Counted from the stretch's first letter, positions 483 to 25,358 are shown. The stretch is DNA of 55,691 nucleotides from an uncultured Methanosarcinales archaeon (GCA_964519225.1 CAZFJK010000003.1:5061-60751); one strand, 5' to 3'. Numbers and translations: made by a program. The notes: a model not told the origin generated them from the letters alone.

Positions 483-1001
483 TTATTTGACGTATATTCT
501 TGTTTTGTCTCCTCTTCCTTCGATTTTAAAATCGATTCTTCTGCGCTCTATTTTTAGGCAGGCAAATTGCTGTTCTTTGTTTGAAGTGCTGTTCCAGATT
601 TCAATCGGTCCGACAAAGATGCTGATTTCGGCTGGAGGTATTAAAAAGACATTTTCTGTTGAGTTATGGAGGTTTTGTTCGACGGCAGCTCTGATGTGAG
701 CGTATTCGTATTTTGAAGGGATGTCGCTTTTTTCTGCGTCTGGCGAGACAAAACAGACTTGGGAAAAGCCTGAAGGTACTCGCATTGGATTTTTTTCGTT
801 GAAAACTATTTGATCGCCGTACTGTATTGCTAAATCACGGATTGCGCTTTCTAGATCGTTCTTGAATTGAATTAACTCAACTTTTTTTCCTTTTTCAATG
901 AAGGAATGAATGGCTTTGTAGCCAAAGAGAAGGATTACTGCGAATATAAAGATTGCGACAATATAAAAAAATACACGCTGGATTTGGGCTTTTTTATTCA
1001 T
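483..1001 (-). CDS. Hypothetical prepilin-like secreted protein (172 aa)
   Basis: ORF track. N-terminus MNKKAQIQRVFFYIVAIFIFAVILLFGY (K-A-Q then a hydrophobic helix). Lies 2 nt downstream of the giant ORF and 3 nt upstream of its paralogue at 1..479. Confidence 0.65.
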   Translation of the reverse strand: MNKKAQIQRVFFYIVAIFIFAVILLFGYKAIHSFIEKGKKVELIQFKNDLESAIRDLAIQYGDQIVFNEKNPMRVPSGFSQVCFVSPDAEKSDIPSKYEYAHIRAAVEQNLHNSTENVFLIPPAEISIFVGPIEIWNSTSNKEQQFACLKIERRRIDFKIEGRGDKTRIYVK

Positions 1002-1003
1002 TT

Positions 1004-4000
1004 TTATTCAATGAGTTCCTTTAGATCTTCTAAGGCTTTTTTTCTTAGGGTTTTCTCCTTGAATTTTTTCTTAATTAGATCAGATAAGAGTTTGAATTCG
1101 TCTTCTGTTAATTTTTCTTTTTTTATGATCTCTCTTATTGGTTTTCCTGATTTTATTCTTTTCTCAATAAGCTCAGCGAGCTGTTTGAATTCTTCTTTCT
1201 TTAGTTTTTTTGGTAATAAGCGTTCGAGGAAACGGCTTTTTTCTTTTTCTATTTCTCGCTTGCGTTTTTCAGCAAGTTCGCGTCTTAGTTTTTCAAGTGG
1301 GGAAACTTCTCTTGGTTTTGGTATGGTTACGGGTCTATAAACTGGTGGAGGAATTTTAGGTTTTTTGAAGCGCGTAAAGAATGCAAAAATCTGTGTTTTG
1401 TATTTTAGAATGAGTAGAATCGCTGCGGCAATGATGGCTATAATCAAAATTATTAAGATGATCTTACCAAGGATTGGTCTTCTTGGAATTTCTGCTTTTG
1501 AACAACCATAGTGAGGTGAGGCTGGATTTTTGATTATGTAAGGAACTTCGCTTGGTGGTGTGTTTGGACATTTATCGAATTTGTCCGGTATTGTGTCGAG
1601 GTCTGCATCATTAAGCACAGTTGGATCTGTTCCTTTTCTGTACTCTTCAAGATTTGTATAGCCGTCGTTATCTGGATCAAGAGATGCATCACTCGGATCA
1701 TTAGGATTTAGATTGTATTTCAGTTCCCAGTAATCAGGCATGCCGTCTGCATCAGAATCGATTTCATCGGGCGCGCATCCGTAATGAGGAGAAGATTTGT
1801 TTATTTCGACTTCTGTTACTTTATCGCTCGGTGTGTTTGGGCATTTATCTTCTGCGTCTGGTATGCCATCGAGATCAGAGTCTTGAATTTTTATGACTTC
1901 AACGATTATTCTTTTGCTTCCATTTATTTGATTTCCAACAGTATCGGCAGCTGAGTAGCATAATACAGAAGTTTCTGATAGGAAGATTGTTCCAGCATAT
2001 TGTAGAGTAGGCGTACAATCTTGGGTTGTTTTTGATAAGCCATAATAAATTCCGTTGCAGCCGTTTTCATCCTGGCAAAGGATTTCAACATTTTTTCCAT
2101 TTGGAACCGGTGTTTCGATGATTGTTATGTTTGGTGGTCCTCTCTCTCTGCATTCCGGAGCTGTACTATTTAAAACAGTAAATGTTATGCTTGACCAATC
2201 TGAATAATGTCCTGCTGCATCTTTGCACCGTACTTTTAAAGTGTATTCTTCGTCTACATTTAGGAGAAGTCCGTCGATTAATGGGCTGTTCTGTGAAGAT
2301 GTTCCGTTAACTGAATAGTTCGTATTTGTAATCTGCCATTCGTAAAGCACTATAGCAGAAAGGTTGTCTGGATCTTCAGCTACGAATGTTGGATGGATTT
2401 GAGTTCTGTCGCAGGTTTTTTCTGCAAGCTGAATTGCTATGATTTTTGGCGGTGTTAAATCAATTACAATGTCAACAGGAATTGTTTGGGTTAAACCTGA
2501 TACGATAAATGTGCATGATACCTTATAAGGATATTTTCCCTCTTTTGGCTTATCAAACGTTGCTGAAAAGACTTGTGTGTTTGATTGAGGAAAGTCATAT
2601 GATGCGTTAAGTTCATCGATGTATTTACAATTTGCAGGAAGATTTGTTTCAACGTTGAGCGTTACTGTTGTTTTGTTTACGATTGGTTTTGCTGAGATTA
2701 TAACGCCCTGCCTTTTCTTATCGACTGTAAAAGTTAAAGTTACTGGAGCTGAGTCAAGTCCAGCGAGATTTCGGCAAACAACATAATATGTGTAGGTTGT
2801 TCTGTCTTTTAGTTGTGTTGTTGGAATTGATACTGTGTGGTTTGTTTTGTATAGACCAATGTGCCAGTCTGGGAATCCAGAACGCATTGAATCAAATTGT
2901 TTGGTATATAGGCTATACTTACAGATTGTTTCGTCGTCTGTTTCAACATTGAATACGGCATTTGTTGTTATTGCGCGTTGTTCTGAGCCCCATGGCGTTT
3001 CGCTTACGTACGCTCTAAGAATTTCTGGCGGGGTTGGATCGTATCTGATAAGGAATGCATGTTCTTTGCTTATGGTTCCATCTGGTTCTTTACACTGAAC
3101 GTTTAATAAGTATGTTTCGTATGGTTGCGTTTTTTGTGGATAATTTGCGCCGTCCGTTGGTTCGAATTGCTGGCCGTACCATACAGAGCGCGGAAAGTTT
3201 TCTATGTGAAATTCTGTCGGTGAATCTTTTTTGAACGGGGTACCAGAGTCATAGCTGAATGAAGTTGATGCGTATTTGCATTCCATGGCTGGTTTATCTG
3301 TTTTTATCTTAAGAGTGAATGCGGGTTTTGTGGAAACGCCGTTAGGAGGATACACTAAGCTTATTCCAAGAGGTTTGTTTATTGCGATAATGCCGCAGTT
3401 TGTTGATTCTTCATTGTCGCCGTTGTCGATAGATTTATAGCAGAAGGTTGTTGATGAATGAATTGGCAATTGGTCTGTGAATTGGGTTGATGGAGAACAT
3501 TTTTTGCCTAAATCTGTTAGGCAGTATAAAATTTCTTTACAGCCAAAGCCTGTTGCTGGAGCATCTCGGCATTGCGCCTTTACTGTTACTGATTCTGTAA
3601 ACGAAGGCCAATTTTCTGGTGTTGTTGCTGTAAAGGAGGTTGATGTTGTTTCCAAAAGAAGTATTGTCTTTGGCGGTTCAAAGTCGAGAGTGAAAAAGAT
3701 GTTTCTTTGCTTTTGTTGTTTTGTTGCGAGATCTGTGCATTTTACTGTGAACGGCATATAGAGGCCTGATCTCGTGTATGAGAATGTTGATGTTGATGTA
3801 TGGATTATGTTATCTGTTGTTGAAAATTTTTCAATAAAGGTATTGTTTCTATAAAGGGAGCAGTTTGCTTTTGCTGCTGTTTTAACCTGTACTGTGATTG
3901 TTCTCTCTTTTGTTACTCTTTTTGGTAGAAGCTGTATGATATAGGGGTCTTGTGCATCTATCTGTGCTGATGCTTTTGCTGTATTTCCAACGAGGTCCTT

Positions 4001-6685
4001 GCATGTTATTTCATAGGGATATATCTTAGGAGCTAAATCTGGATATATAATTGTTGTTGAATAATCGATTCTTTGATCTTGTAAGCCTTTAAGATTGTCT
4101 GTGCAAAAAACGATTTCATCTGAAAGTATTGTAATATAGGCTGTTGCGTTTGTGGGTGTTGGAAAAGCAACATCAGTAATAATTTGCAACGACGGCGGCT
4201 TTGTATCGATATAGATTTCTTTTGTTTTTATGTTCAGTTCTCTGTTTTTGTGCTTGTCAATAGCATAGAATGATACGAAGTACTTGTTGTTTGGTGATGC
4301 TGGAAAGCTTAATTTTGTTACATCAACTGATGCTTTTCCTGTTGAATCTGTTTTTATTTGGTTTGATGGAGTGCATTGAGCTGAAGGAGAAATGCAGTAA
4401 AAGATTGTTGATTCTGGTTCTGATTCAAATGAGATGATTGGATTTGTCGCTGTTACTTTTATCGTATTTACCTTTGTTTCTGGTCTTTTGTTATCTGCTT
4501 TGCATGTAAGGTCTGTTGGTGAGCAATCATCAATGTAATCTGCATTGCCGTCTTTTATGCATTTTGTTCCTGTCCAGCGGCAAGTTCCAAGGCGGCAGTG
4601 ATCTTTGCTCGGTGTGATTTGATTTGTTGTCGGATTAAGCAATGTTGTATCGCATGATTGCTCATCTGTGTAATCGTAACATGTTATGCCTGCTGTGCAT
4701 TTCAGACATGACTTTGTTGTTTGATCGTATCTGCATTTGCCGAGAAGTTGGCATTGCGATGGGGTGCATTCAGAAGCTAGAAAAGGTTGATTGCAAAGAT
4801 CGCATTTGTCTTCTTTTTCATAGCCAAGCTGCGTGCAGATTCCAAGACCAAGCTCTGGTACGATTGGAAGCCATTTGCACTTTCCAAAACCGCAGGCATC
4901 TTTTTGGCAAGCAAGTTCTGATTTATAATCAAAGCAGGAATGGATGTTATTGCATGATTGACATTTATATAGAAAATTAAATTTATCGTAATAGCAAAAT
5001 TGCTTTGCATGGCAGAGATTTGCATTGAAATACAGGCCGAATGGATCTGCTCCTAATGTAGAAGAATTGCATTCGCCTGGATCTATGCAATAGGTTATGC
5101 CAAAAGCATCTGGACCAAAGCAAGCAACTGAGCATGCTTCTATTTCTGATAGTTGATTTTGCTCTGTGCATTCATATCGCGATTTTCCTATGCAGAATTC
5201 TGTTGTTTTTCCTTCGCATTCAGCAGAACCTGTTTTTATAGTTGCTGTTGCTGGATCGCTTTCGCCATTCGGGTAGATCGCTTTTATTGAATAGGTGTAC
5301 TTTGTATTCCAATCTACATCTTTGTCGATGAACTGAAGCTGATTTGGATCTGAGATTGTTGCAATTTCAAAGAGTTCTCTGAAAATGCGATAGCCTAGAA
5401 CTGTTTCGCATGGTTTTTGCCATGTTAGGAGTACTGCTTTAACTCCGCGAATATGGTTTGCTGTGAATTGCTGCGGTTTGGTTAGTGTGAAATAGCTGCA
5501 ATTGGCACCGAAGGGAGTGAGGAGAATGTCTTTTGTAATTACGTCGTTTGGTAGGAGAAAAACGGTTTCTTGGGCTGGTTGGTATGAAGGTTTTTCGACT
5601 TTGATTTTATATTCGGTCCGGCCTGTGCTTTTAACAGGAAGTTCTGCTGAGAATCCTGTTGCAGTTGTACGGGTTTTTATTATGACTAGTTTATCTGTGC
5701 GGATAAAGGTTAATTCTGCAAGAGGAATATGCTGGGCTGTGATTGAATCGATGACATAGCCGCTTACGTTTGCTGTTGGTTCTTTTTTCAGAGTGAAGTT
5801 TATTTGGGTGTTGTTTGTTATTTTGATTGTTTTTGTTTGTAATTCAAAACCTGGATAAAATGCTTCGATTGAATAGGTATCTGGAACAAGTTGAATTGTA
5901 TAGTATCCTTTTGTGTCTGTTTTTGTTTTATATTGCGATTTAGCTGTTGCTGTTATTTCTGCCTGCTGGATTGGATTTCCTTTTTCATCTTTAACAAATC
6001 CTGAAAGCGTGACTGTTGGTAATGGAGTTAGCTGTATGTTGAAAGTGTTTTCTCCCGGTGAGAGTGTTTGAATAAAGTTTTTTGTTTCGTAGTTCTGAGC
6101 GCTTGCAACAATCGAGTATGTTCTTGCTAGAAGATTCTCAAAGCGATATTTTCCTGATGCGTCTGTTTTTGTGCTTAAACCATCGATGCTGATTGAAGCT
6201 GATGGAATTGGAGTTCCTGTTATTGCATTGACGACGGTACCTGAAATGTTTGCAAGTTTAGTTATTTGTTGCTGGCATATTGTTGCATCTCTGATCGATT
6301 CATTGAATGTTGCGTTGAATCCTGTAAAGGCGCTGCAGTATTGGTCGCATAAATAGCGTCTTGTTACTTTGTCTGGATGCAGGAAATGGGTTGTTCCGTT
6401 TGTGCAAATGCAGCAGCCGAGCTGACATTCTGGAACAAGGGGTGAATCGCAGCTTGTGATGTTAAGACCTGTGACGTTAATGAAAGCGGTTGGGCAGGAT
6501 GTTGTATCAGGGAATAGCAGGCAGAAGGTTGAAAGATCTGCTGGATCAAAACAGCAGTATTGGGCGTTTGTTTTTAGTGAGATAGCTAAGAAAAAGAGAA
6601 CTGCGACTATAAAAAACACACCTCTTTTTCTCATCAGGTTTTTTATTTTGTTTGTTTTATATAAGGTTTGTGTTATGTTTTGCAT
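1004..6685 (-). CDS. Giant (1893 aa) multidomain Cys-rich surface protein with a C-terminal TM anchor and a charged cytoplasmic tail
   Basis: Uninterrupted 5.7 kb ORF. The real start is probably M18 (6634), giving MRKRGVFFIVAVLFFLAISLKTNA as a signal sequence. Three carboxypeptidase-regulatory-like beta-sandwich repeats (ISGTVVNAITGTPI..., LSGFVKDEKGNPI..., VSGYVIDSITAQHI...; approx 5513..6247). Very Cys-dense central region (approx 4490..5235). Thrombospondin-type-3-like Ca-binding repeats (DSDLDGIPDAEDKCPNTP, DSDADGMPD, DPDNDGYTNLEEY, DADLDTIPDKFDKCPNTP; 1475..1882). TM helix ILGKIILIILIIAIIAAAILLIL (1406..1474). 133-aa K/E-rich tail (1007..1405). Confidence 0.85.
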   Translation of the reverse strand: MQNITQTLYKTNKIKNLMRKRGVFFIVAVLFFLAISLKTNAQYCCFDPADLSTFCLLFPDTTSCPTAFINVTGLNITSCDSPLVPECQLGCCICTNGTTHFLHPDKVTRRYLCDQYCSAFTGFNATFNESIRDATICQQQITKLANISGTVVNAITGTPIPSASISIDGLSTKTDASGKYRFENLLARTYSIVASAQNYETKNFIQTLSPGENTFNIQLTPLPTVTLSGFVKDEKGNPIQQAEITATAKSQYKTKTDTKGYYTIQLVPDTYSIEAFYPGFELQTKTIKITNNTQINFTLKKEPTANVSGYVIDSITAQHIPLAELTFIRTDKLVIIKTRTTATGFSAELPVKSTGRTEYKIKVEKPSYQPAQETVFLLPNDVITKDILLTPFGANCSYFTLTKPQQFTANHIRGVKAVLLTWQKPCETVLGYRIFRELFEIATISDPNQLQFIDKDVDWNTKYTYSIKAIYPNGESDPATATIKTGSAECEGKTTEFCIGKSRYECTEQNQLSEIEACSVACFGPDAFGITYCIDPGECNSSTLGADPFGLYFNANLCHAKQFCYYDKFNFLYKCQSCNNIHSCFDYKSELACQKDACGFGKCKWLPIVPELGLGICTQLGYEKEDKCDLCNQPFLASECTPSQCQLLGKCRYDQTTKSCLKCTAGITCYDYTDEQSCDTTLLNPTTNQITPSKDHCRLGTCRWTGTKCIKDGNADYIDDCSPTDLTCKADNKRPETKVNTIKVTATNPIISFESEPESTIFYCISPSAQCTPSNQIKTDSTGKASVDVTKLSFPASPNNKYFVSFYAIDKHKNRELNIKTKEIYIDTKPPSLQIITDVAFPTPTNATAYITILSDEIVFCTDNLKGLQDQRIDYSTTIIYPDLAPKIYPYEITCKDLVGNTAKASAQIDAQDPYIIQLLPKRVTKERTITVQVKTAAKANCSLYRNNTFIEKFSTTDNIIHTSTSTFSYTRSGLYMPFTVKCTDLATKQQKQRNIFFTLDFEPPKTILLLETTSTSFTATTPENWPSFTESVTVKAQCRDAPATGFGCKEILYCLTDLGKKCSPSTQFTDQLPIHSSTTFCYKSIDNGDNEESTNCGIIAINKPLGISLVYPPNGVSTKPAFTLKIKTDKPAMECKYASTSFSYDSGTPFKKDSPTEFHIENFPRSVWYGQQFEPTDGANYPQKTQPYETYLLNVQCKEPDGTISKEHAFLIRYDPTPPEILRAYVSETPWGSEQRAITTNAVFNVETDDETICKYSLYTKQFDSMRSGFPDWHIGLYKTNHTVSIPTTQLKDRTTYTYYVVCRNLAGLDSAPVTLTFTVDKKRQGVIISAKPIVNKTTVTLNVETNLPANCKYIDELNASYDFPQSNTQVFSATFDKPKEGKYPYKVSCTFIVSGLTQTIPVDIVIDLTPPKIIAIQLAEKTCDRTQIHPTFVAEDPDNLSAIVLYEWQITNTNYSVNGTSSQNSPLIDGLLLNVDEEYTLKVRCKDAAGHYSDWSSITFTVLNSTAPECRERGPPNITIIETPVPNGKNVEILCQDENGCNGIYYGLSKTTQDCTPTLQYAGTIFLSETSVLCYSAADTVGNQINGSKRIIVEVIKIQDSDLDGIPDAEDKCPNTPSDKVTEVEINKSSPHYGCAPDEIDSDADGMPDYWELKYNLNPNDPSDASLDPDNDGYTNLEEYRKGTDPTVLNDADLDTIPDKFDKCPNTPPSEVPYIIKNPASPHYGCSKAEIPRRPILGKIILIILIIAIIAAAILLILKYKTQIFAFFTRFKKPKIPPPVYRPVTIPKPREVSPLEKLRRELAEKRKREIEKEKSRFLERLLPKKLKKEEFKQLAELIEKRIKSGKPIREIIKKEKLTEDEFKLLSDLIKKKFKEKTLRKKALEDLKELIE

Positions 6686-8652
6686 TCTGCTCTAATGCCA
6701 AAGAATCCAGATGAGCAAGTTCCTTGACGCCAGGCTCCTTGGACAAGTTTCTTACATGGTTTTCCGCTGTCGCCAAAGCGGCAGTTGCAATGATCTTGTT
6801 CATTGAAAATGCCATCTCCGTTAGAATCCACCACTTCAGTAGTACAAAGTTTTTGACATCCTCCTTTTCCATAGCACCAACCTTCTGAAGTAAGCGAATA
6901 CGCTTTTTCTCCAACGCATGCAGAAGCTCCAAAACAGCACGTGTCTGAAGTTCCTATGATTTCGGTTTTTCCAAGGCATGCATTTCCAGTTGAGCCATCG
7001 CAATAGCGGATGATGTTGTAGCAATGCAGGTTTGAGGTGTTGTATGGTGCATTTTGTAAAGTGTTTGGACCTGAATAGCAGATTGTTGTGTTTGGAGCTA
7101 TTGTAAAATCGTCTCTGCAGCATGAATGATTTCCAAGGTATTCTGGACCGAAAGGAAATGGTGGTAAAGAAGAACGATGGGGTAAACATTGCTTTATTGT
7201 TAAAGTTGAAAAAGTATTATATGTTTGGTTGTAGCTTGAGTAGAATAAATTTGCTTTTAGAAGAGCTATACATGTTGAATTAGGCGTGCATGCATCGAAT
7301 AATTTAGTGATTTGATTTGGCTGGAGTTCTGTTATGAATTGGCTTGTTGTTACGTTAAGTACTGTTGTAGCATCTTTTTTTATTGTCCAATAAAAAAGAT
7401 ATTTGGCTTTACTGTCTAACGTTAGGTTTTTTGGTTTTGCTATGAGAAAAACAGGATCTTCGGGAGAAAGAATGTTGCTTGGAATTGTTGAATAGTTTGC
7501 TGTGATGTTTGCACTGACAATTAATTTTGGATCGACAAGTATTCTGACTAATTGAGTATCATTTAAATTATGCTCATCGTATATTGTGAAAGTGAGATTG
7601 TGATAACCTAAAGAAGAAGGAAGCGATGATGGAAAGGATTTATTTATGCTGTCCTCATCAGGATCTGCATATGAGATGTTCAGGCCGTCTATGGAAAGGT
7701 TTTCGCCTTCTATGATCAGTACGTCATAGGTATCATCGTCTTGCTTTTGAGGATATCTATTTATGTAGCTCAATATTGGGGGTCTGTTTTCTCTTGCAAA
7801 TTGGAATATAAGAGGTTGGTTTTTTATTGTGTAAAGATCATCTTTGATGATGAAAATATCAGTGTCGGTGCTTCCTTGTTGTTTAATTATTGTTAGATTT
7901 CCTTCTAGAAGATATCTTCTTAAATTTTCTTTCAGTGTTGCTGTAAGGTTTGATGTGGCGTTTGTCCAATCTGAATGGATGCTGTCCCTCAGGATTAAAT
8001 AAATATAGTATAATCTTGTTTTAACTTCAACCCAAGGGGTGTTTTCGAGAATAGGAATTTCTTCTCCCTTTAAGCGAGCAGAGAGAACAAATTGAAGTTT
8101 TGCTCTTACTGATGTCCTTAAGAGTTTAACAACAGGTTTTATTGTCGTTATGCTGAGATCATAGCCTGTCACTGATTTTAGAGCTGTTATGTTAATACAC
8201 TGGATTGCGTTTTCTTCTAGGTATTTTCTTATTTCGCTAGTTATCGATGGTAGGGTTCTTTTACCGAAAAAAACAGGTTCGGGTTGATCGAGTTTGAATC
8301 TGCAATAATCTGGTTCAGGATATGCTTTGGTACAAGGGTAATCTTCAGGAATTGGTTGTTGTATTGTAATTAAGATAGAAACGTTTTCGTTATTGAATAG
8401 AATTGAGTTTGTTGGTTTATATTGGCCTCCTCTTCTTGATATAGTCAGGATTGCATCCTCTAAAGTCGATCTCAGGCATTCTTCTGTGAAGAATTTAAAG
8501 GCTGAAACCGACATTGCTCTTTTTATAACTTTCTGAACTTCTCGGCTTGCTTTTTGTTCAGCGGTTTGTTCTGCAAGGTAGAATAATAAGAAGAAGGTTA
8601 TAATGATTGTGAAGCCTAGAACAATGAATATGGTGATTTGTGCACGACGCAT
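6673..8652 (-). CDS. Hypothetical 659-aa surface protein: prepilin-like N-terminus plus a Cys-rich C-terminal module
   Basis: ORF track. The N-terminus MRRAQITIFIVLGFTIIITFFLLFYL fits the class III signal pattern [KR][GA][Q][ILVTAS]x3 + hydrophobic stretch. The last ~170 aa are Cys-dense (HSCCRDDF, CYNIIRYCDGSTGNAC, DTCCFGASAC, DSNGDG). Overlaps the downstream giant ORF by up to 13 nt and sits 1 nt from the upstream gene. Confidence 0.8.
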   Translation of the reverse strand: MRRAQITIFIVLGFTIIITFFLLFYLAEQTAEQKASREVQKVIKRAMSVSAFKFFTEECLRSTLEDAILTISRRGGQYKPTNSILFNNENVSILITIQQPIPEDYPCTKAYPEPDYCRFKLDQPEPVFFGKRTLPSITSEIRKYLEENAIQCINITALKSVTGYDLSITTIKPVVKLLRTSVRAKLQFVLSARLKGEEIPILENTPWVEVKTRLYYIYLILRDSIHSDWTNATSNLTATLKENLRRYLLEGNLTIIKQQGSTDTDIFIIKDDLYTIKNQPLIFQFARENRPPILSYINRYPQKQDDDTYDVLIIEGENLSIDGLNISYADPDEDSINKSFPSSLPSSLGYHNLTFTIYDEHNLNDTQLVRILVDPKLIVSANITANYSTIPSNILSPEDPVFLIAKPKNLTLDSKAKYLFYWTIKKDATTVLNVTTSQFITELQPNQITKLFDACTPNSTCIALLKANLFYSSYNQTYNTFSTLTIKQCLPHRSSLPPFPFGPEYLGNHSCCRDDFTIAPNTTICYSGPNTLQNAPYNTSNLHCYNIIRYCDGSTGNACLGKTEIIGTSDTCCFGASACVGEKAYSLTSEGWCYGKGGCQKLCTTEVVDSNGDGIFNEQDHCNCRFGDSGKPCKKLVQGAWRQGTCSSGFFGIRAECKT

Positions 8653-8653
8653 T

Positions 8654-11600
8654 TTAAATAGGAGTGAGTTTGATTAACTGGTTCCATACATCTGGATTGA
8701 AGCTTAGGATTGTTTGCTCTGTTGCTGTGGCGTTGCAGAAGGTTTGAGGTATGTTTTTAAGAGAATCGCATATTTGTGCTGTTATGTTTTCTAATCTTGC
8801 AACAATGTAGGTTTCATTTGCTCTTGTCTCTTTTAATGCAAGGATTTGCTTGTTTTGTGATTTTGCAATAAATAATGCATCGTAATTTTGATGGGTTTCG
8901 ATCGATGAGAGACTGACGAGGTTTCCAAGCATTGTTTTGGGTTTCCATGTTCCTGTTATGAATTGTATTATCGATTTAAATATATTAAATAAACGTGAGA
9001 AAAATCCGCGCTGCATTGTTATGCCCTGTTTTGAATAAAATACCGCATTCAGCTGACGATCGTACCAAATGCGTTTGTCATTGCTGCAAGTGTCAAAATC
9101 AACGACGTTATTGCAATAGGTTGTTGGTAAATCTAAAGCGTAAAGGAAAGAGTATTCTGAATCGTTGATTGGTTTGTTGAGCGAAACAGCGAATAATGTT
9201 TTTTCCTTTCCTGCGTCAATGAATTTAAGAACGCAGAAGTTATTTACGCAAGGTACTGGTGTTGTGAAATTAAAGCATGTTGGCGGTACTGCTGGAAAAA
9301 GAGATTCTCCTTGAATATACTTAAGCTTTAATGTTGGTTCTGGTAGTGTTGTTTTGAAATCGTCGCACAGTAAAGTGAATTCGTTTGCTGTTGTTGTAAG
9401 ATTAAGAAGGACCGATGCAAGAGTTCTTGTTCTTGTGCGCCATTCGCCGTTATAGCACAGATGATCAAAGATATACTGGCTGTGGTTTATACATATTGGA
9501 TTGTCTTTGTAGCCCGGATCTGGTGAATATGTCTCTGGTTTGTTGAAGTTGTCTGGATTTCCGTTAGGATCAACTAAACATTGTTCTGGATAAGGGCAGT
9601 AAGCTGATTGGTTTGAAAGCCAGTCGTATTTAAGAGGCGCAGCAATCCATTTTCCGTAAACACAACGATATGTTTTTCCTGAAATGTTGTATGTTTGTTG
9701 AGGTTTGTCGTGTAAAGATGCTAGACACATAGAGCCGTTCCAGCAAAATAGCGGATGACAGCAGCTTTTTGTTTTTTTGTCAGGATCATAGGAAGTTGTG
9801 TTTCTTTCTGATGCAGGTGTTCCTGAGAATGCGTCACTCCAGCTTTCTTCATAGGAACAGAAGTAGTTTCCAAAGGTAGTGCATGGTTCTGATTTTTTGG
9901 TTTTTGCTGGAAGGGGAAGCGTTGAAACTAGATTTTGGCAGTAGTAGAACTTTTTATTTGAATACAGGACATCGCGTTTAATTTCTTCTAATTCAGATGA
10001 GTAGATTGTTTCTGTTGGTTTTCCTTGGATTGCTGTTTGCATAATGAAGATTGATTTTGAACAGAATGGTTCTTTGCAAGCAATAGGTTTTTTGAAATTG
10101 CCTTTTGTTTCTGTGAAAAATGCTGATTCGTTTTCTAAGATTGGTAAGCCATTGATGCAAGCTCCTTTTTCGTCTGCGTATGATTGTGTTTCGTTGTAGC
10201 AGCATTTAGTGCCTGTCCATGTATAAAGATTTGAGCAGACGGTTTCTGAATTTTCTAATTTTTCTGGTGATATCCAGTAATCGTGAGTTTGAGCAAATTC
10301 ATCTGTGCAGAAAAATAAGGGTTCTTTTGTTTCGAGGTATATGTTTTTCACTTTAAGCTTGAGGGGTTCTGTCATAGCAGTAACATTTGTATAAAAAATG
10401 ATCTGATCGATATCTGTTGGATTTACGTTATGCAGAGGGATTTCGATTCTTATCCATTTTCCTGTTTTTACCTCGCGTGCAAATGCGAAGATCGGACCTC
10501 TTATGAGAATGTCTAAATTATTGACATTTGTTGCCATGCCTGACGCAAGTAGAACTTCTGTTACTGGTTTGACTGAAGATATGTTTATGAAGAAGATAAG
10601 ATATTCGGAAGGAGGGCTTGAATTAATGTTTAGAGAAATGCTTTTGTATGCTGAAATTGTTTCGTCTGAGATATGAGGGGTGATATCTTTAAAATATTCG
10701 TATGTGAATGAGTAATTGTTTCTATCAATAATCGTGATTGGTTCTGCTCGGTAGATTGCTTGAGTATATTGCTCTGGATACCTGTGTTTGCTGTAGCATG
10801 TTTCGCCTGGAATGCAGCATTCGTAGAATTTTTGATTGTAGCAAATAAATCTGTAAGATTCTCTAGTTCCAGATAAGATTGTTCTGTCTGGTATGCCTGT
10901 ATCTGCTGTTGTGTTGCATAAGTACCATCTTGCACCGTTTGAGATGTATTGTTTTTTATTGAATTCATATATTTTGAAGGGTTCCTGACCTGCTTGATGC
11001 CAGATAGAGCCGTCGCAAAGGAATTCGTAATCAGAAATATCTTTTAGTCCTTTTGGAGAAAGTTTTCCTTTGTTTTCTGGATAGCAGCAGTATTCGTCAA
11101 AGGAACCTGTTTGAGGAGCATTTGGAAGCCATTCGCCATCCTCTAATTGGCATTGCGCGTAGCCTTTGAATTTTCTATAACCAATAATGAAGCGTGTTTC
11201 GTCGTTTGTTGAACCGCCAAGTTCTAAGCCGACAATTGCTGCATCGTCGTATTCAACAAAAACCCGGGCTTGGTAAAAGGATTTATCTGCGCCAGCTGAT
11301 GATGCGTCCTTAACTGAAGAAAGACTGCAATCAGGGTTTAATTCTCTGTAAGAATACCAAAATGAATCAAAGCGTCCTTTATGAAAATCAAATCCAAAGC
11401 CAACAAGAAAAGCGTTTTCAGGCAATTGGATATTGAATGGAAATTTATATTTTAGTGGTACGAGTGTGGGCCCTGGAACAAGAGAATAACATTTTCCTTT
11501 GTTTGTCCATTTTTTTATGCCGAGTTTGCATGTGCCTGTTGTTTCATTATAGATCAGTTCTGCATATTGGATTCCTTTGTCTCGGCTGAAGCCCGTTATG

Positions 11601-11767
11601 ACATAAGGTTTATCAGTTGGGATTTGCTGGTATTCACAATACGTTCTTGCGAAAGCGCTCTTTTTTGTTTCTTTTACTGATGCTTCTAAGAAAGCTATTG
11701 ATAGTTGGGCTGTGATGATCAAGAGCGTTGCGAGTATAAATAGATGAATAAAACAGTTTTTCTTCAT
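8654..11767 (-). CDS. Hypothetical 1037-aa secreted Cys-rich protein
   Basis: ORF track (the track starts at a GTG at 11773; an ATG at 11767 gives MKKNCFIHLFILATLLIITAQLSIAF, a Sec-type signal). Many Cys residues, often as CC/CxC pairs. I recognise no enzymatic motif. First gene of the tightly packed 5-gene minus-strand cluster. Confidence 0.8.
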   Translation of the reverse strand: MKKNCFIHLFILATLLIITAQLSIAFLEASVKETKKSAFARTYCEYQQIPTDKPYVITGFSRDKGIQYAELIYNETTGTCKLGIKKWTNKGKCYSLVPGPTLVPLKYKFPFNIQLPENAFLVGFGFDFHKGRFDSFWYSYRELNPDCSLSSVKDASSAGADKSFYQARVFVEYDDAAIVGLELGGSTNDETRFIIGYRKFKGYAQCQLEDGEWLPNAPQTGSFDEYCCYPENKGKLSPKGLKDISDYEFLCDGSIWHQAGQEPFKIYEFNKKQYISNGARWYLCNTTADTGIPDRTILSGTRESYRFICYNQKFYECCIPGETCYSKHRYPEQYTQAIYRAEPITIIDRNNYSFTYEYFKDITPHISDETISAYKSISLNINSSPPSEYLIFFINISSVKPVTEVLLASGMATNVNNLDILIRGPIFAFAREVKTGKWIRIEIPLHNVNPTDIDQIIFYTNVTAMTEPLKLKVKNIYLETKEPLFFCTDEFAQTHDYWISPEKLENSETVCSNLYTWTGTKCCYNETQSYADEKGACINGLPILENESAFFTETKGNFKKPIACKEPFCSKSIFIMQTAIQGKPTETIYSSELEEIKRDVLYSNKKFYYCQNLVSTLPLPAKTKKSEPCTTFGNYFCSYEESWSDAFSGTPASERNTTSYDPDKKTKSCCHPLFCWNGSMCLASLHDKPQQTYNISGKTYRCVYGKWIAAPLKYDWLSNQSAYCPYPEQCLVDPNGNPDNFNKPETYSPDPGYKDNPICINHSQYIFDHLCYNGEWRTRTRTLASVLLNLTTTANEFTLLCDDFKTTLPEPTLKLKYIQGESLFPAVPPTCFNFTTPVPCVNNFCVLKFIDAGKEKTLFAVSLNKPINDSEYSFLYALDLPTTYCNNVVDFDTCSNDKRIWYDRQLNAVFYSKQGITMQRGFFSRLFNIFKSIIQFITGTWKPKTMLGNLVSLSSIETHQNYDALFIAKSQNKQILALKETRANETYIVARLENITAQICDSLKNIPQTFCNATATEQTILSFNPDVWNQLIKLTPI

Positions 11768-11810
11768 TTTCACCTCTTTTTATTGTTTTGTTAAAAGGAG
11801 TGAAAAGGAT

Positions 11811-11818
11811 TATATAAA
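11811..11818 (-). promoter_or_regulatory. Candidate TATA box for the surface-protein operon
   Basis: The minus strand reads TTTATATA about 44-51 nt upstream of the ATG at 11767. It lies just after the stop of the upstream Rpp30 gene. Confidence 0.35.
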
Positions 11819-11820
11819 CC

Positions 11821-12483
11821 TTATTCAACGAGTTCTATTCCTTTTGCTATAAAAGTTGGTGATTTTCTTTTGCGATTGAATTTTATTTTTTCTACCAATG
11901 TTTTGTAATTTTGTTTTGTTTCTTTTGGAGTAAGCTGGAATAGGTTAAAGAAGCTTATTACGTCGTGAAAATAAAGCATTTCTAAAGGATGGTTTGCAAA
12001 ACTTGCCATAATAACTGGAACGTGATATTTTTTGCATAGTATGATGTTCTGCGCTATTCTTCCAAGCAGAATGGATTTTTGCTTTGTATTGAGGATTGAG
12101 CGATTTATGCAAAGGAATTTTTCTTTTTTTGCAAGAATCTTAACGAGAACTTGATTTAAACCGCTTGCTCTAAAATGAAGCGGATCTTTTGATTCAAGGG
12201 TTTCGATGTTTGTTATGATGTCGCAATTTGCTTTCTCAATAAAAATGCGAAGGTTCTGCTTTGATGGAACAGCAATGACAAGATCTGCAAGCTTTGATGC
12301 TTTTTTTGCCTGGTTCGGTTTATTGATGATTATTGCTGAAGCGATATTTATGCTGTTTTCAGTAAATTTTAGTTCTTTAAATTCATTGAAAGGATAAGCA
12401 AAAACGAGCCATTTATAAGCAAAACGTTTAGCAAATGACAGGAATTCTTTCTCATTGTTTTTTGGAGAAACGATGTCGAACAT
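11821..12483 (-). CDS. rnp3: RNase P protein component 3 (Rpp30-like)
   Basis: 220 aa. The pattern ...CDIITNIE...PLHFRASGLNQVLVKILAKKEKFLCINRSIL...ILLGRIAQNIILCKKYHVPVIMASFANHPLEMLYFHDV matches my recollection of archaeal Rpp30 TIM-barrel proteins. Motif recall only. Confidence 0.6.
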   Translation of the reverse strand: MFDIVSPKNNEKEFLSFAKRFAYKWLVFAYPFNEFKELKFTENSINIASAIIINKPNQAKKASKLADLVIAVPSKQNLRIFIEKANCDIITNIETLESKDPLHFRASGLNQVLVKILAKKEKFLCINRSILNTKQKSILLGRIAQNIILCKKYHVPVIMASFANHPLEMLYFHDVISFFNLFQLTPKETKQNYKTLVEKIKFNRKRKSPTFIAKGIELVE

Positions 12484-12506: not shown

Positions 12507-12515
12507 TATATAAAA
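12507..12515 (-). promoter_or_regulatory. Candidate TATA box for rnp3 (implies a leaderless or near-leaderless mRNA)
   Basis: The minus strand reads TTTTATATA, with its proximal edge 24 nt upstream of the start codon at 12483. Confidence 0.35.
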
Positions 12516-12536
12516 GTTGCTACGAATTTGTTATAT

Positions 12537-12640
12537 TTCCACTGGAAATAAAGGGGTGTTAGTCGTTTTGATTTAAAGTTCCAAAGGAAATGAAGGGGTT
12601 TTAAAAATGAATTATATAAATTCCAAAGGAAATGAAGGGG
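12537..12640 (+). repeat. Three direct ORB-like (origin recognition box-like) 20-bp repeats with an exact 42-bp period
   Basis: TTCCACTGGAAATAAAGGGG at 12537..12556, TTCCAAAGGAAATGAAGGGG at 12579..12598, and an identical copy at 12621..12640. Each has a TCCAnnGGAAA dyad followed by a G-string, as in archaeal Orc1/Cdc6 binding sites. Confidence 0.6.
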
Positions 12641-12791
12641 AGTAGAGATTTTGGCTTATATTTTAGGTTCTCTTTATTTTTAAATACATAAATTTAAATA
12701 AGTTTTTGCTTTATAAATAAAAGATGTGAAAAGTCCAATCTAATGCTTTTTAAGCTAAATGGAAAGAAAATATTTGGTTTGGTGGTAAAGA

Positions 12792-13364
12792 ATGCCTAAA
12801 AAAAGGAAAAAAATAGGTAAAAAGGAAATACATGTTGTTAATATTGTTGTAAGCACTTCTTTGGAGCATGATATACCGTTAGAGAAGATGGCTGCAACAC
12901 TTTCTAATACAGAGTATAATCCTGAGCAGTTTCCTGGTCTTGTGCTTAGGATTAAAGAGCCTAAAACAAGTGCTTTGATATTCAGCAGCGGAAAGGTTGT
13001 TTGCACAGGAGCGAGGAGCATGGATAAGGTGGAAGAGAGCATAAAGAAGATAATAAAAAGTTTGGAGAAGATCAATATAAAGATCAAGATAAAGCCTGTG
13101 ATTAGCATTCAGAATATTGTTGCAAGCGGCAGCGTTGGAATGGATTTGAATTTGAATGATCTGGCAATGAAGTTACCTAATACAGAATACGAACCTGAAC
13201 AGTTTCCCGGTTTGGTTTTTAAGCTGCCTGGAACAAGAGCAACGTTTTTGCTTTTCTCGAACGGAAAGATTGTCTGTACTGGAACAAAGAGCGAAAAGGA
13301 AGTGCATGAAAGCTTGGATAAGCTGATTGAGGTTTTGAAGAAAGCAAAAGGGATTAAGCGTTAA
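12792..13364 (+). CDS. tbp: TATA-box binding protein
   Basis: Two internal TBP repeats: NIVVSTSL...EYNPEQFPGLVLRIKEPKTSALIFSSGKVVCTGARS and NIVASGSV...EYEPEQFPGLVFKLPGTRATFLLFSNGKIVCTGTKS. GGTGG lies 7 nt upstream of the ATG. Confidence 0.95.
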   Translation: MPKKRKKIGKKEIHVVNIVVSTSLEHDIPLEKMAATLSNTEYNPEQFPGLVLRIKEPKTSALIFSSGKVVCTGARSMDKVEESIKKIIKSLEKINIKIKIKPVISIQNIVASGSVGMDLNLNDLAMKLPNTEYEPEQFPGLVFKLPGTRATFLLFSNGKIVCTGTKSEKEVHESLDKLIEVLKKAKGIKR

Positions 13365-13421: not shown

Positions 13422-16400
13422 ATGAAAATGGAGGTGAGAGAGTTAATTGATAAAATAAAGGAATTTTTTGAATTGTTTTATTTTGATAGGATTCTTGAAA
13501 AAGCAAGGAAGGGTGAGAAAAGTTTTCAGGTTGATTTTTCTGACCTGTTGAAGTTTGATTCTGAGCTTGGTGAAATGGTTTTGGATGATCCAGAAGAATT
13601 ATTGAAGTGCTTTGATCTTGCTGTGAAGGAGCTTGGGTTTGAGTTAAGGGTTAGGTTTTTTAACCTTCCTTTAAGCAGCTATATGCTGATCAGAAATATA
13701 AGAAGTAAAGATATAGGTAAGTTTGTTGCGATTGAAGGCGTAGTAAGGCAGAAAAGTGATGTAAGGCCGCAGGTCACAGCTGCAAGATTTGAATGTCCTA
13801 GTTGTGGCAATGTGATAAATGTTTTACAGCTTGATACGAGCTTTAAAGAGCCAAATAGGTGTAGTTGCGGCAGAAAAGGAAGATTCAGATTGCTTGGAAA
13901 GGAACTGGTTGATGCTCAGGGACTGGTTCTTGAAGAATTGCCAGAACATCTTGAAGGAGGAGAGCAACCTAAGAGAATTAAGGTTTTTCTTAAGGATGAC
14001 TTGGTAAGTCCTATGACAGAGAAGAGAACAAATCCTGGAAGCAGAATAGTTGTAATTGGTGTAATTAAGGAAGTGCCGATTGTTTTGAGAGGCGGCGTAA
14101 AGAGCACAAGGTATGATTTAATGGTCGAGGCAAACAATGTTGAGTTTGTTGAAGAAGATTTCTATTCGCTTGAGATTACAAAAGAGGAGGAAGAACAGAT
14201 AAAAGAACTTGCAAAAGATGAATACATTTATGATAAACTTGTTGAGAGCATAGCACCATCGATTTATGGTTATGAAAAGATGAAGGAGGCGTTGGTTCTG
14301 CAATTATTTGGCGGTGTAAGAAAAACAAGGAAAGACGGTGTTGTTTCAAGAGGGGATATCCATATTCTGCTTATTGGCGATCCTGGTGCAGGAAAAAGTG
14401 CTCTTTTGAAAAGAATGGTACTGGTTGCGCCAAAAGCAAGATATGTAAGCGGAAAGGGTGCGACGGGTGCAGGTTTATGTGTTGGTCCGGATAGTTTTGT
14501 GATTACAAATTCAGGATGCATTTATAGAATTGAAGAATTAGTTGAAGAAAAATTAAATGGAAATAAGAAAAGATTTGAGGAGGGGATCTGGCAGGCTAAG
14601 GATCCGAATGATGGTAGGAAGGTTTTAAGCTTGGATAAAGACTTGAAGCTGAATGAAAGAAAGATAAGTCAATTTTGGAAGCTTGAAGCTCCGCATGAGC
14701 TGGTACGTTTGATTACGCAAAGTGGAAAAGAATTGATTGTGACGCCAGAAACGAGATTGCTTACGCTGGAAAATGGTTTTGTTTGTTGGAAAAAAGCAAA
14801 GTCGTTTAAAGAAGGTGATTGTCTTGCAACTGCGCGAGAAATTGAAACAAGTGAAGTAATCAACGATGTTCTTGTTGTTGATTTGATTGAGAGCAATCCG
14901 CTTGTTTATGGTGTTGGCGATCATGTTAAGAAAGCGATAGATATTATTGCAAAAAAGTTTGGTTCTAAACGAGATGCTGCTAGAAAGCTTGGTTTGAGCG
15001 AAAATCAGCTCTATGTTTGGTTTGGAAAGTGCCCGCCCAAAGGAATACATTTGAAGAAACTTAAGAAATTAGTTGATGCGGCTGGGTTGGATTGGAAAGA
15101 AGTTGTTAAAGATATTGTTTATCTCTCATTGTATAGGGGCCGTAAAATAAAGATTCCATATGCTTTAAATAAAGAATTGTTGTATTTTGCCGGGCTTGTC
15201 GCTGGTGATGGCGATCTCTCAAAAGGCAAGTGTAGCATAGCTATCCGATTTTCGAATAGCTCAGAAGAATTACTAAACCGATTTTCAGCATTAGCTGAGA
15301 GATTGTTTGGTGTAAAGTGTAACAGAACCGAAAAGAGCATGCATAGGCCTGCTGCGGTTAGATTTTCATCGAAGATTGTTTTTGAGATACTCAATAAGCT
15401 GGGCATACCTGCATCGCCTAAATCAGGAAAGATTGATTTGAGTAACGTTCTTCTAGGACTTCCTAATGAGTTGGTTTCGGCATTCCTATCAGGGCTTTTT
15501 GATAGCGATGGGTATGTTGTTGACAGAAAAACAAGAGGAAGTTCTTATGTTGGATTTGTAACAACGAGTAAAATTTTAGCATATAAATTACAATTAGTTC
15601 TGTTGAGGTTCGGGATACACGCAAAGATAAGAAAAAGAAATGCGAATCCGAATATCAAAGTAAAATCTAAGTTGGATAAGTATGAAATTACAATAAAGGG
15701 AAAAGAAAATTTAGAACAATTTGAGAAGAGGATTGGATTTAAATCCAGTGAGAAGAAAGCAAAACTAAGGAAGATTATTAAAAAGATTGGAAGATCAAAT
15801 ACTAATGTAGATTTAATTCCCGGGGTGCAAAACAAAGTTATAGAAGCAAAAATCTGTGCTGGTATTTCTTCTAAACAATTATTTGGTTATAAGAGTTCTA
15901 GTTATAGTTTGAAGGAGAAGGAGAGACTTCAGCGAATTGCTAATAAATTGAACGATAGGCATCTTAAGAAATTAGCTTATTCAGATATTTTCTGGGAGAA
16001 GATAACAAAAGTTGAGATGATACGTAATAAAATAAAATATGTATATGATCTTACTGTTGATGATGCACATAATTTTCTAGTGAATGGTTTCATTGTTCAT
16101 AATACTGCTTCTGTAACAAGAGATGAGTTCCTGAAAGGATGGAGCCTTGAAGCTGGTGCGATGGTTTTGGCGAACGGTGGTTTATGCGCTATTGACGAAT
16201 TGGATAAGATGAGTCAAGAGGATAGGGCTGCTATGCATGAAGGACTGGAGAATCAAACAATAACTATAAGCAAAGCAAACATCCAAGCAACGCTTATTGC
16301 AAGAACGACTGTTCTCGCTGCTGCTAATCCAAAGTTTGGGAGATTTGATCCATATGATATAATTGCTAAGCAGATTGATTTGCCACCGACTTTGATTAAT

Positions 16401-17060
16401 AGATTTGATTTGATATTCCCTGTTAAAGACCTGCCTGAAGAAAAGAAGGATGAATTGCTTGCCGGACATATTTTGAAGCTACATCAAAGGCCTGACTTAA
16501 AAGAAGGAGCAATTCCAACTAAACTTTTAAGGAAATATATTGCTTATGCTAGACAAAGGGTTAAGCCTGTTCTGACTGATGCTGCATTAGAAGAAATAAA
16601 GAGATATTATGTTGAGATGAGGAATAAAGCAGGAGAAGCTGAAGGGGGTATGAAAGCCATTCCTATTTCGCCAAGGCAATTAGAGGCATTAGTAAGGTTG
16701 GCTGAAGCAAGTGCAAAAGTCAGGCTTTCTGATAAAGTTGAAAGGAAGGATGCAAGGCGAGCCATTGATTTACTGCATTATTGCTTAACACAGGTCGGAA
16801 TTGATCCGCATACTGGGAAGATAGATATTGATAAGATCGCGACAGGCGTTACTGCTTCTCAGAGGAGTAGAATCGTTTTGGTGAAGGAAATAATTGAAGA
16901 GCTTGAAAACAGGGTCGGGAAACAGATTCCTATTGAAGATGTTCTTAGGGAAGCACTTAGAAGAAAGATAAGTGAGAGTGATGTTGAAGAAGCTATTGAA
17001 AAGTTAAAGAGGGTGGGGGATATATTTGAGCCTAGAAGAGGATTTATTCAAAGAATTTAA
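13422..17060 (+). CDS. mcm: MCM replicative helicase, interrupted by an in-frame intein
   Basis: N-terminal C4 zinc motif CPSCG...CSCG, Walker A GDPGAGKS, Walker B CAIDELDKM, arginine-finger region NRFDLIF, C-terminal winged-helix tail. 1212 aa in total, about 670 aa once the intein is removed. Confidence 0.95.
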   Translation: MKMEVRELIDKIKEFFELFYFDRILEKARKGEKSFQVDFSDLLKFDSELGEMVLDDPEELLKCFDLAVKELGFELRVRFFNLPLSSYMLIRNIRSKDIGKFVAIEGVVRQKSDVRPQVTAARFECPSCGNVINVLQLDTSFKEPNRCSCGRKGRFRLLGKELVDAQGLVLEELPEHLEGGEQPKRIKVFLKDDLVSPMTEKRTNPGSRIVVIGVIKEVPIVLRGGVKSTRYDLMVEANNVEFVEEDFYSLEITKEEEEQIKELAKDEYIYDKLVESIAPSIYGYEKMKEALVLQLFGGVRKTRKDGVVSRGDIHILLIGDPGAGKSALLKRMVLVAPKARYVSGKGATGAGLCVGPDSFVITNSGCIYRIEELVEEKLNGNKKRFEEGIWQAKDPNDGRKVLSLDKDLKLNERKISQFWKLEAPHELVRLITQSGKELIVTPETRLLTLENGFVCWKKAKSFKEGDCLATAREIETSEVINDVLVVDLIESNPLVYGVGDHVKKAIDIIAKKFGSKRDAARKLGLSENQLYVWFGKCPPKGIHLKKLKKLVDAAGLDWKEVVKDIVYLSLYRGRKIKIPYALNKELLYFAGLVAGDGDLSKGKCSIAIRFSNSSEELLNRFSALAERLFGVKCNRTEKSMHRPAAVRFSSKIVFEILNKLGIPASPKSGKIDLSNVLLGLPNELVSAFLSGLFDSDGYVVDRKTRGSSYVGFVTTSKILAYKLQLVLLRFGIHAKIRKRNANPNIKVKSKLDKYEITIKGKENLEQFEKRIGFKSSEKKAKLRKIIKKIGRSNTNVDLIPGVQNKVIEAKICAGISSKQLFGYKSSSYSLKEKERLQRIANKLNDRHLKKLAYSDIFWEKITKVEMIRNKIKYVYDLTVDDAHNFLVNGFIVHNTASVTRDEFLKGWSLEAGAMVLANGGLCAIDELDKMSQEDRAAMHEGLENQTITISKANIQATLIARTTVLAAANPKFGRFDPYDIIAKQIDLPPTLINRFDLIFPVKDLPEEKKDELLAGHILKLHQRPDLKEGAIPTKLLRKYIAYARQRVKPVLTDAALEEIKRYYVEMRNKAGEAEGGMKAIPISPRQLEALVRLAEASAKVRLSDKVERKDARRAIDLLHYCLTQVGIDPHTGKIDIDKIATGVTASQRSRIVLVKEIIEELENRVGKQIPIEDVLREALRRKISESDVEEAIEKLKRVGDIFEPRRGFIQRI
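14478..16103 (+). mobile_element. MCM intein (542 aa) with a LAGLIDADG homing endonuclease domain
   Basis: The host motif SGKGATGAGL|TASVTRDEF is split. The insert starts with Cys (CVGPDSFVITNSG) and ends ...AHNFLVNGFIVHN, followed by Thr+1. LAGLIDADG motifs LYFAGLVAGDGDL and FLSGLFDSDGYV. Junction codons verified in frame (TGT 14478..14480, AAT 16101..16103). Confidence 0.85.
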
Positions 17061-25349: not shown

Positions 25350-25358
25350 GTGGTATTT

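Follow-up and report, generated by a model that had tools for sequence, protein, structure and literature searches.

Here we report that three origin recognition boxes (ORBs), the sites bound by the archaeal replication initiator Orc1/Cdc6, lie in tandem upstream of the tbp-mcm gene pair in a 55,691-nt stretch of DNA assigned to an uncultured Methanosarcinales archaeon (GCA_964519225.1 CAZFJK010000003.1:5061-60751; hereafter the window). By their motif, the three boxes are genuine Orc1/Cdc6 recognition boxes and members of the ORB class. On comparative grounds, we give a slightly better than even chance to the proposal that the array serves the tbp-mcm promoter as a conserved Orc1/Cdc6 operator, one-armed and helically phased, and that the true origin candidate is located beside cdc6. 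A previous sequence-only reading of the same DNA had offered two options for this spacer, the replication origin itself or a promoter regulated by Orc1. The promoter option has gained from the orientation of the boxes, from their register with TATA-like elements, from their association with mcm where it is separated from tbp, and from the lack of an inverted arm. The origin option has been weakened, because a classical site composed of inverted ORBs and a duplex unwinding element (DUE) adjoins cdc6 in the window, and this layout is conserved at cdc6 in relatives.

Three recognition boxes ahead of tbp and mcm

The full boxes, TTCCAnnGGAAATnAAGGGG, start at positions 12537, 12579, and 12621, all on the plus strand and exactly 42 and 42 bp apart from start to start, as the sequence-only reading had described them. 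The sequence reads TTCCACTGGAAATAAAGGGG in box 1 (12537-12556) and TTCCAAAGGAAATGAAGGGG in boxes 2 (12579-12598) and 3 (12621-12640). With up to three mismatches allowed, six matches to the pattern were counted in the window where 0.19 would be expected; 100 shuffled windows all gave fewer than six. The mini-ORB dyad core TTCCAnnGGAAA is exact in all three copies and agrees with the published Pyrococcus furiosus ORB and mini-ORB oligonucleotides, so that the likeness to Pyrococcus-type boxes noticed earlier holds; the reverse complement of P. furiosus ORB1 reads TTCCAGTGGAAATGAAAC...GGGGGG (PMC1904270). Directly 3' of the dyad, every copy carries GGGG at positions 17-20, which gives each box its polarity.

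Two weight matrices were used to score the boxes. Matrix 1, 30 nt long and derived from the tbp-upstream boxes of relatives, found only five sites with at least 8 bits in the window, namely the three tbp boxes (37, 35, and 27 bits) and two on the cdc6 side (25 and 16 bits). To avoid circularity, matrix 2 was built from 115 cdc6-upstream boxes in independent metagenome loci; it scores the three tbp boxes at 33, 26, and 23 bits, ranks 1, 3, and 4 in the window, with rank 2 taken by the cdc6-proximal box at 29.2 bits. Shuffled windows yielded zero to six matches with matrix 2 at the 8-bit threshold, none of them clustered. The G-string columns are information-rich in the tbp-derived and cdc6-derived matrices alike. 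A recent tandem duplication of a 42-bp unit was considered as the source of the array and rejected, since the spacers between the boxes are unrelated and conservation is confined to the boxes. The other replication genes of the window, those for RFC, FEN1, and a Cas4/Dna2-like nuclease, have no box with either matrix, and a search of the window for known RNA families and tRNAs returned none.

The array is located where gene orientation switches. The gene calls and the switch itself had been read correctly: the RNase P p30-like gene lies on the minus strand and tbp and mcm lie on the plus strand, and all five long open reading frames (ORFs) from 483 to 12483 are on the minus strand. The very AT-rich stretch of about 150 bp reported to run up to tbp measures 151 bp (12641-12791) with 76.8% AT.

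A search with TBP, the TATA-binding protein, in genome assemblies identified 80 loci with 77-89% identity, nearly all labelled as Woesearchaeota/Nanoarchaeota-type DPANN archaea, and by sequence relationship the organism itself is a Woesearchaeota-type DPANN archaeon. Of the 80 loci, 77 contain mcm, which follows tbp in 76 of them and is inverted in one (L040); the other three loci end just after tbp. A block with the order tbp-mcm-SpoIIM-aIF2beta-DP2-DP1-cdc6 is common among these relatives, and the gene upstream of tbp is variable (p30, TrmB, and others). Linkages of mcm with aIF2beta and of cdc6 with DP1 and DP2 were described in a previous survey, which makes no mention of tbp-mcm (PMC2643942). 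In what follows, the TBP-anchored genome loci (L001-L080) are distinguished from a second set of metagenome loci found without reference to tbp, in which chance pattern matches inside bacterial genes (glyQS, collagen-like, TraG) were left out of the interpretation.

Conservation of the boxes and their register with the promoter

In 1.17 Mb of relatives scanned with matrix 1 at a threshold of at least 15 bits, 61 sites were found upstream of tbp, distributed over 49 of the 80 loci, and 60 of the 61 aim at tbp. The remaining 21 strong sites comprise nine upstream of cdc6 and 12 elsewhere; the latter include five just upstream of mcm, one facing an inverted mcm, two far arms of cdc6 origins, and four others (three of them weak and intragenic). 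The sequence-only reading had named occurrence upstream of many unrelated genes, as for a general transcription-factor site, as an observation that would speak against it. This objection does not apply, because the strong sites are confined almost wholly to tbp/mcm and cdc6.

The spacing of the boxes is conserved as well. Relatives with two boxes upstream of tbp have them 83-86 bp apart nearly always, which is the distance between boxes 1 and 3 of the window. An unbiased metagenome scan for same-direction box pairs 72-102 bp apart, made without reference to tbp, recovered 19 pairs upstream of tbp; all 19 have a spacing of 83-87 bp and all their boxes aim at tbp. One tbp-linked locus (L130) carries four boxes at 85, 83, and 85 bp, and the tbp-linked arrays hold from one to four boxes across Woesearchaeota-type genomes. 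A triple array with boxes 42-43 bp apart, as in the window, is restricted to the closest relatives, L167 and L199 (TBP 98% and 96% identical). A hidden, degenerate middle box was looked for in the relatives with 84-bp pairs and none was found, so that the middle box is present only in the window and these two loci. From the spacing in relatives and their lack of a middle box it follows that the 84-bp frame of eight helical turns is the conserved feature and the middle box a sublineage addition. When the window is aligned with L167 and L199, the boxes and positions 12641-12719 are almost invariant, whereas divergence is seen between the boxes and in the 5' leader. The arrays are retained in relatives with neither polD nor cdc6 within 10 kb (L033) or with a different order of the gene island (L034, L040, and L063).

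The spacing of cdc6-upstream pairs falls into other classes (97-98, 78, 88, 74-77, and 85 bp). In another DPANN-like lineage, whose Cdc6 is 56-62% identical, the near arm consists of a same-direction ORB pair at 97-98 bp accompanied by a far inverted box (L093, L095, L096, L115, L121, L122, L125, L146, L150, and others). It appears that the spacing classes differ by lineage and by site.

Downstream of the proximal box, the relatives share an order of elements, consisting of a TTTAAAAAcAAAAGTATTTATAAATA-type block, a second TTTATAAA, a GGGGGT ribosome-binding site, and the ATG, and the sequence between these elements has diverged. Across 68 tbp-linked loci, the starts of TATA-like elements peak at +43/45 (15 elements), +57/59 (28), and +73 (25) from the proximal box, in contrast to the control side of the box, where at most two TATA-like elements were found at any offset. 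The window offsets of +58, +72, and +89 agree with the peaks at +57/59, +73, and +89 of the same loci. The boxes thus hold a fixed position and orientation relative to the core promoter.

They also stay with the gene when gene order changes. Boxes occur directly upstream of mcm in the three loci where an ORF separates it from tbp (L037, L073, and L076), in the tbp-mcm spacer in L012 and L065, and facing the inverted mcm in L040. In these six loci, where mcm has its own promoter, the layout consists of a box, about 23 nt, a single TATA element, about 30 nt, and the ATG, and the local DNA is not AT-rich. As judged from these sequences, no other observation speaks as strongly as this layout for assigning the boxes to promoters instead of unwinding elements.

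As a separate observation on the tbp promoter, TATA-like elements recur there in tandem, three or more in number, with conserved offsets of about 14-16 bp from one to the next, in the window, in L001-L080, and in the tbp-linked loci among L081-L200. Such tandem elements could permit TBP to regulate its own gene.

A two-armed origin candidate beside cdc6

A candidate for a classical origin with inverted ORBs and a DUE adjoins cdc6 in the window, 12.4 kb from the three boxes (Table 1). Of the three pattern matches that remain outside the tbp array, two bracket the AT-rich spacer beside cdc6, a minus-strand box at 25006-25025 and a plus-strand box at 25199-25218. The sequence-only reading had proposed a candidate origin away from cdc6; the array does lie away from that gene, at 11.1 kb from its stop codon and 12.4 kb from its start, but the inverted-ORB site beside it (24993-25349) had been overlooked. 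Adjacency to the cognate cdc6/orc1 gene, a typical though not obligatory feature of origins, is thus lacking at the tbp array. The only Cdc6 seen in the window is of the initiator type; it matches Sulfolobus solfataricus Orc1-1 (2qby_A) with E = 2.6e-114 and Aeropyrum pernix ORC1 (2v1u_A) with E = 8e-105, and it retains the winged-helix RR and the GRYGRTRE wing.

Comparison of cdc6-linked loci revealed a two-armed layout. With cdc6 read as the plus strand, a far box on the minus strand is located at -230 to -820 and one or two near boxes on the plus strand at -30 to -210. The boxes turn their TTCCA ends to the AT-rich DNA between the arms and their G-strings away from it. This layout was found in about 38 of 48 metagenome cdc6 loci, in most of the eight genome loci, and in the window. 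The ORB end that faces the DUE was taken from this geometry, as an explicit published statement was looked for and not retrieved. At the tbp-linked arrays, a minus-strand box within 1.2 kb was present in none of the 19 independently recovered loci, and in the genome-anchored set one was found near the array in only four of 81 sequences. In the window, inverted ORBs flanking an unwinding element are absent from the tbp array and present at 25004-25220. In Sulfolobus oriC1, each of the two inverted ORBs is required for bidirectional firing (PMC12141716).

In their arrangement, the tbp arrays look like an origin reduced to its near arm. Given the geometry at cdc6-linked loci, the AT-rich DNA after box 3 takes the outer position, toward the promoter, and not that of the DNA to be unwound; the unstable segment in it sits on the G-string side of the box and is built of conserved TATA-like elements. 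The argument that direct repeats are foreign to origins was dropped, as same-direction pairs proved common in the near arm of cdc6-linked origins in the metagenome scan. The earlier remark that the array is not the classical inverted arrangement was correct and turned out to name the distinguishing feature, since the discriminating property is the absent inverted arm and not the directness of the boxes.

Origin-like geometry has been recreated incidentally in one relative (L040, -847 to -200), where mcm is inverted and divergent from tbp, and one minus-strand box facing mcm lies about 560 bp from two plus-strand boxes facing tbp; here the inverted geometry arises from two promoter-linked arrays. 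A TrmB-family gene is a recurrent divergent neighbor of cdc6 across the origin spacer (L013, L015, L019, and L020 are also involved). In L071 (-2337..-247), this gene is located on the tbp side, together with the IF-2B-family gene that comes after TrmB in the window. Because the TrmB and IF-2B genes have moved to the tbp side, the island from tbp to cdc6 in L071 is read as inverted relative to its flanks, with the breakpoints in the two ORB-bearing spacers.

Strand skew was examined as a possible mark of an origin. The plus strand is G-rich across the whole window. Computed along that strand from third codon positions, GC skew lies between +0.35 and +0.67 for almost all genes regardless of their coding direction, and in the window it changes sign neither at 12.5 kb nor at 25 kb. 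Several equally skewed relatives likewise have no flip at the tbp boxes. However, a calibration on cdc6-linked ORB sites that have sequence to either side revealed no change of sign across the site in six of eight strongly skewed loci. Because canonical cdc6 sites also lack a flip, skew cannot separate origins from non-origins in this group, and it was dropped as evidence both for and against an origin at the tbp boxes. The sequence-only reading had proposed that a skew extremum elsewhere would count against it; there is none at the boxes, but for the same reason this is uninformative. Besides the window, strongly skewed loci include L034, L052, L060, L054, L045, L106, L161, L128, and L093, and most relatives have gene-orientation skew only.

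Side observations on the surrounding genes concern inteins and large ORFs. Inteins interrupt two replication proteins of the window, MCM (LAGLIDADG type, approximately residues 363-894) and the RFC small subunit (31308-33563, approximately residues 118-508). Three very large consecutive ORFs occupy the minus strand at 1004-6685 (1893 aa), 6673-8652 (659 aa), and 8654-11773 (1039 aa). A Pfam scan covering the 659-aa and 1039-aa products gave no match for either, and for the 1039-aa protein only weak relatives, with 22-32% identity, are encoded near tbp in a few other loci.

Table 1. Features of the tbp-mcm and cdc6 regions of the window
Feature	Position	Strand	Remarks
RNase P p30-like gene, divergent neighbor	11821-12483	-	TATA-like element at about 12507-12517, 20 bp from box 1; neighbor not conserved in relatives
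ORB box 1	12537-12558	+	TTCCACTGGAAATAAAGGGGTG; dyad and G-string, aimed at tbp; kept in L167 and L199
ORB box 2, middle	12579-12600	+	42 bp after box 1; sublineage-specific; relatives with 84-bp pairs lack a middle box
ORB box 3, promoter-proximal	12621-12642	+	84 bp after box 1, the spacing conserved in relatives; same sequence in the window, L167, and L199
Presumed tbp-mcm core promoter region	12643-12719	+	Nearly invariant spacer and three tandem TATA-like elements
TATA-like elements	12679-12686, 12693-12700, 12710-12719	+	TTTAAATA (first two) and TTTATAAATA (third); offsets +58, +72, and +89 from box 3
Shine-Dalgarno-like GGTGGT	12781-12786	+	Ahead of the tbp ATG; GGGGGT/GGTG ahead of the start codon in relatives
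tbp, first gene of the pair	12792-13364	+	TATA-binding protein; Pfam TBP, E = 1.5e-61
mcm	13422-17060	+	Replicative helicase with LAGLIDADG intein (Pfam)
cdc6	23778-24992	-	Orc1/Cdc6 initiator, Orc1-1 class (Pfam); presumed binder of the boxes; heads the cdc6-DP1-DP2 operon (PolD subunits)
Near-arm ORB	25004-25025	-	12-33 bp upstream of the cdc6 ATG; G-string toward cdc6; 24.7 bits (matrix 1), 29.2 bits (matrix 2); position occupied in relatives
Candidate DUE	25026-25198		173 bp, 82% AT; least stable duplex of the window; internal mini-ORB at 25099-25111
Far-arm ORB	25199-25220	+	Inverted relative to the near arm
TrmB-family regulator gene	25350-26144		Divergent from cdc6 across the origin spacer

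A proposed initiator-controlled promoter, and other explanations

In the proposed operator, an Orc1/Cdc6 monomer would occupy each box, its winged helix contacting the dyad and its AAA+ domain, with the initiator-specific motif (ISM), the G-string, in keeping with published contacts of the winged helix to the dyad and of the ISM to the G-tract (PMC9738581). Spacings of 42 and 84 bp correspond to four and eight helical turns and place the boxes on one face of the helix. Binding bends the DNA by about 35 degrees (PMC3089459), and the bends may add coherently because the sites share that face. The promoter-proximal protomer would then present its AAA+ side to the site of TBP and TFB, and occupancy, dependent on the level and nucleotide state of the initiator, would set the transcription of the helicase/TBP operon. 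The position of the boxes upstream of, and not over, the TFB-recognition element and TATA would favor activation or anti-repression, and that of the near box at cdc6, between the promoter region and the ATG, would favor autorepression there.

The array can be compared with several known systems. With the ORBs of Sulfolobus oriC1, Aeropyrum ori1, and Pyrococcus oriC it shares the dyad followed by a G-string, an initiator of the same class with conserved winged helix and ISM, several copies in one intergenic spacer, and AT-rich DNA nearby. In contrast to these origins, it points one way without an inverted arm, lies 11-12 kb from cdc6, and is locked to the promoter of tbp-mcm (or mcm), and a separate classical inverted-ORB site exists beside cdc6. 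DnaA boxes at the dnaA and nrdAB promoters and at datA are likewise initiator sites outside the origin, in or by promoters of replication genes, with possible feedback on expression, and the array would play in archaea the part that DnaA boxes play at bacterial promoters. The two differ in protein family and domain of life as well as in the target, which here would be the replicative helicase plus TBP. Sulfolobales Orc1-2, a DNA-damage-responsive transcription factor, offers an example of an Orc1/Cdc6-family protein acting at promoters with ATP-dependent control of transcription, as is proposed for the tbp array. Orc1-2 is a non-initiator paralogue with altered winged-helix arginines that recognizes a short asymmetric ANTTTC element (PMC9738581), unlike the sites described here, which are full initiator-type ORBs. 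Finally, the Thermococcales possess a second conserved ORB cluster inside dp1, bound by Cdc6 in vivo in Pyrococcus (PMC1904270). Like the tbp array, it is composed of conserved ORBs outside oriC near the cdc6-polD replication island, but it lies within the dp1 coding sequence at 2-3 kb from oriC, whereas the tbp array is intergenic and promoter-linked.

Several observations weigh against the operator interpretation. About 30 of the 80 relatives have no detectable box upstream of tbp, which means that the element is dispensable. In an 80-bp scan of the 55.7-kb window, the segment from 12655, which follows box 3, ranks second in duplex instability, and a fixed register between boxes and AT-rich repeats would also be expected of a one-sided origin of the bacterial style. 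The tbp boxes are closer to the consensus than those of the cdc6 site, and the directness of the boxes is not diagnostic on its own, because same-direction pairs occur in the near arm at cdc6. The ChIP-chip (chromatin immunoprecipitation on arrays) study of P. abyssi, the only genome-wide one in archaea, found Cdc6 essentially only at the oriC region and contrasted it with DnaA, which also works at promoters (PMC1904270); a promoter role for initiator-type Orc1 is therefore without experimental precedent.

Some of the same observations would also fit a second or auxiliary origin, or a helicase-loading site, at which Orc1/Cdc6 bound to the array would melt the AT-rich DNA at 12643-12740 and load MCM, either in one orientation only or jointly with the cdc6 site 12.4 kb away. 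We consider this unlikely. Its main support is the low stability of the adjacent 80 bp; in addition, the boxes are full ORBs scoring as high as or above those of the cdc6 site, their strict phasing and fixed distance to tandem AT-rich repeats resemble the box array and DUE of a bacterial oriC, and archaea with multiple origins are known (PMC3607249). However, the AT-rich stretch is invariant among close relatives and consists of TATA-like elements, and it lies on the G-string side of the boxes, which corresponds to the cdc6-promoter side of the canonical site, whereas the unwinding DNA is on the TTCCA side at 38 of 48 cdc6-linked sites. Boxes are found before mcm's own promoter in DNA that is not AT-rich. 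An opposite box is missing from all 19 independent arrays and rare in the genome-anchored set; both inverted ORBs of Sulfolobus oriC1 are individually required (PMC12141716), and a canonical origin candidate is already present 12 kb away.

A reservoir or architectural role, in which the boxes titrate Orc1/Cdc6 in the manner of datA or pair with the ORBs at cdc6 and loop the 12-kb island of replication genes, is in our estimation rather improbable. The boxes are multiple and high-scoring, the two ORB clusters bracket the tbp-mcm...DP2-DP1-cdc6 island in the window and in many relatives, the inverted island of L071 has its breakpoints in both ORB-bearing spacers, and the Cdc6-bound cluster outside oriC in Thermococcales is a precedent (PMC1904270). 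Such a role needs neither a fixed register with the promoter nor an orientation directed at the gene, yet both are observed. Moreover, the boxes follow mcm once it is separated from tbp, the arrays persist without cdc6 or polD nearby and with altered island order, and dp1 of the window (22249-23781) contains no ORB with either matrix.

A more radical proposal treats the one-armed arrays as single-orientation helicase-loading sites next to the helicase gene; combined with the absent skew flip at cdc6 sites, it would mean that replication does not proceed bidirectionally from the cdc6-linked origin and starts instead unidirectionally or at a differently defined site. We regard this as very doubtful.

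Hardly any weight is given to a different regulator as the binder of the boxes, such as the TrmB-family protein (25350-26144) on a TCCAnnTGGA-like dyad: the dyad is palindromic, as is typical for winged helix-turn-helix dimers, and the gene recurs beside ORB-bearing spacers (the cdc6 origin in the window, L034, L040, L057, and L162, and the tbp boxes in L071), but the conserved G-string 3' of the dyad makes the motif as a whole asymmetric, the motif occurs at cdc6-linked origins of many lineages and matches ORBs shown to bind Cdc6/Orc1 in Pyrococcus, and the initiator of the window is closely related to two Orc1 proteins crystallized on such DNA.

Initiator-type Orc1/Cdc6 of archaea is regarded as a DNA binder of origins only. 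No prior description of ORBs at tbp or mcm, or of DPANN origins, was found in the searchable literature. If the array is an operator, it would provide the first sign of direct control by an archaeal initiator over expression of the helicase that it loads, and a simple feedback would link the capacity for initiation to the supply of helicase in minimal-genome organisms with a single initiator. The array may also serve as a natural "half-origin" for asking what the inverted arm adds to origin function.

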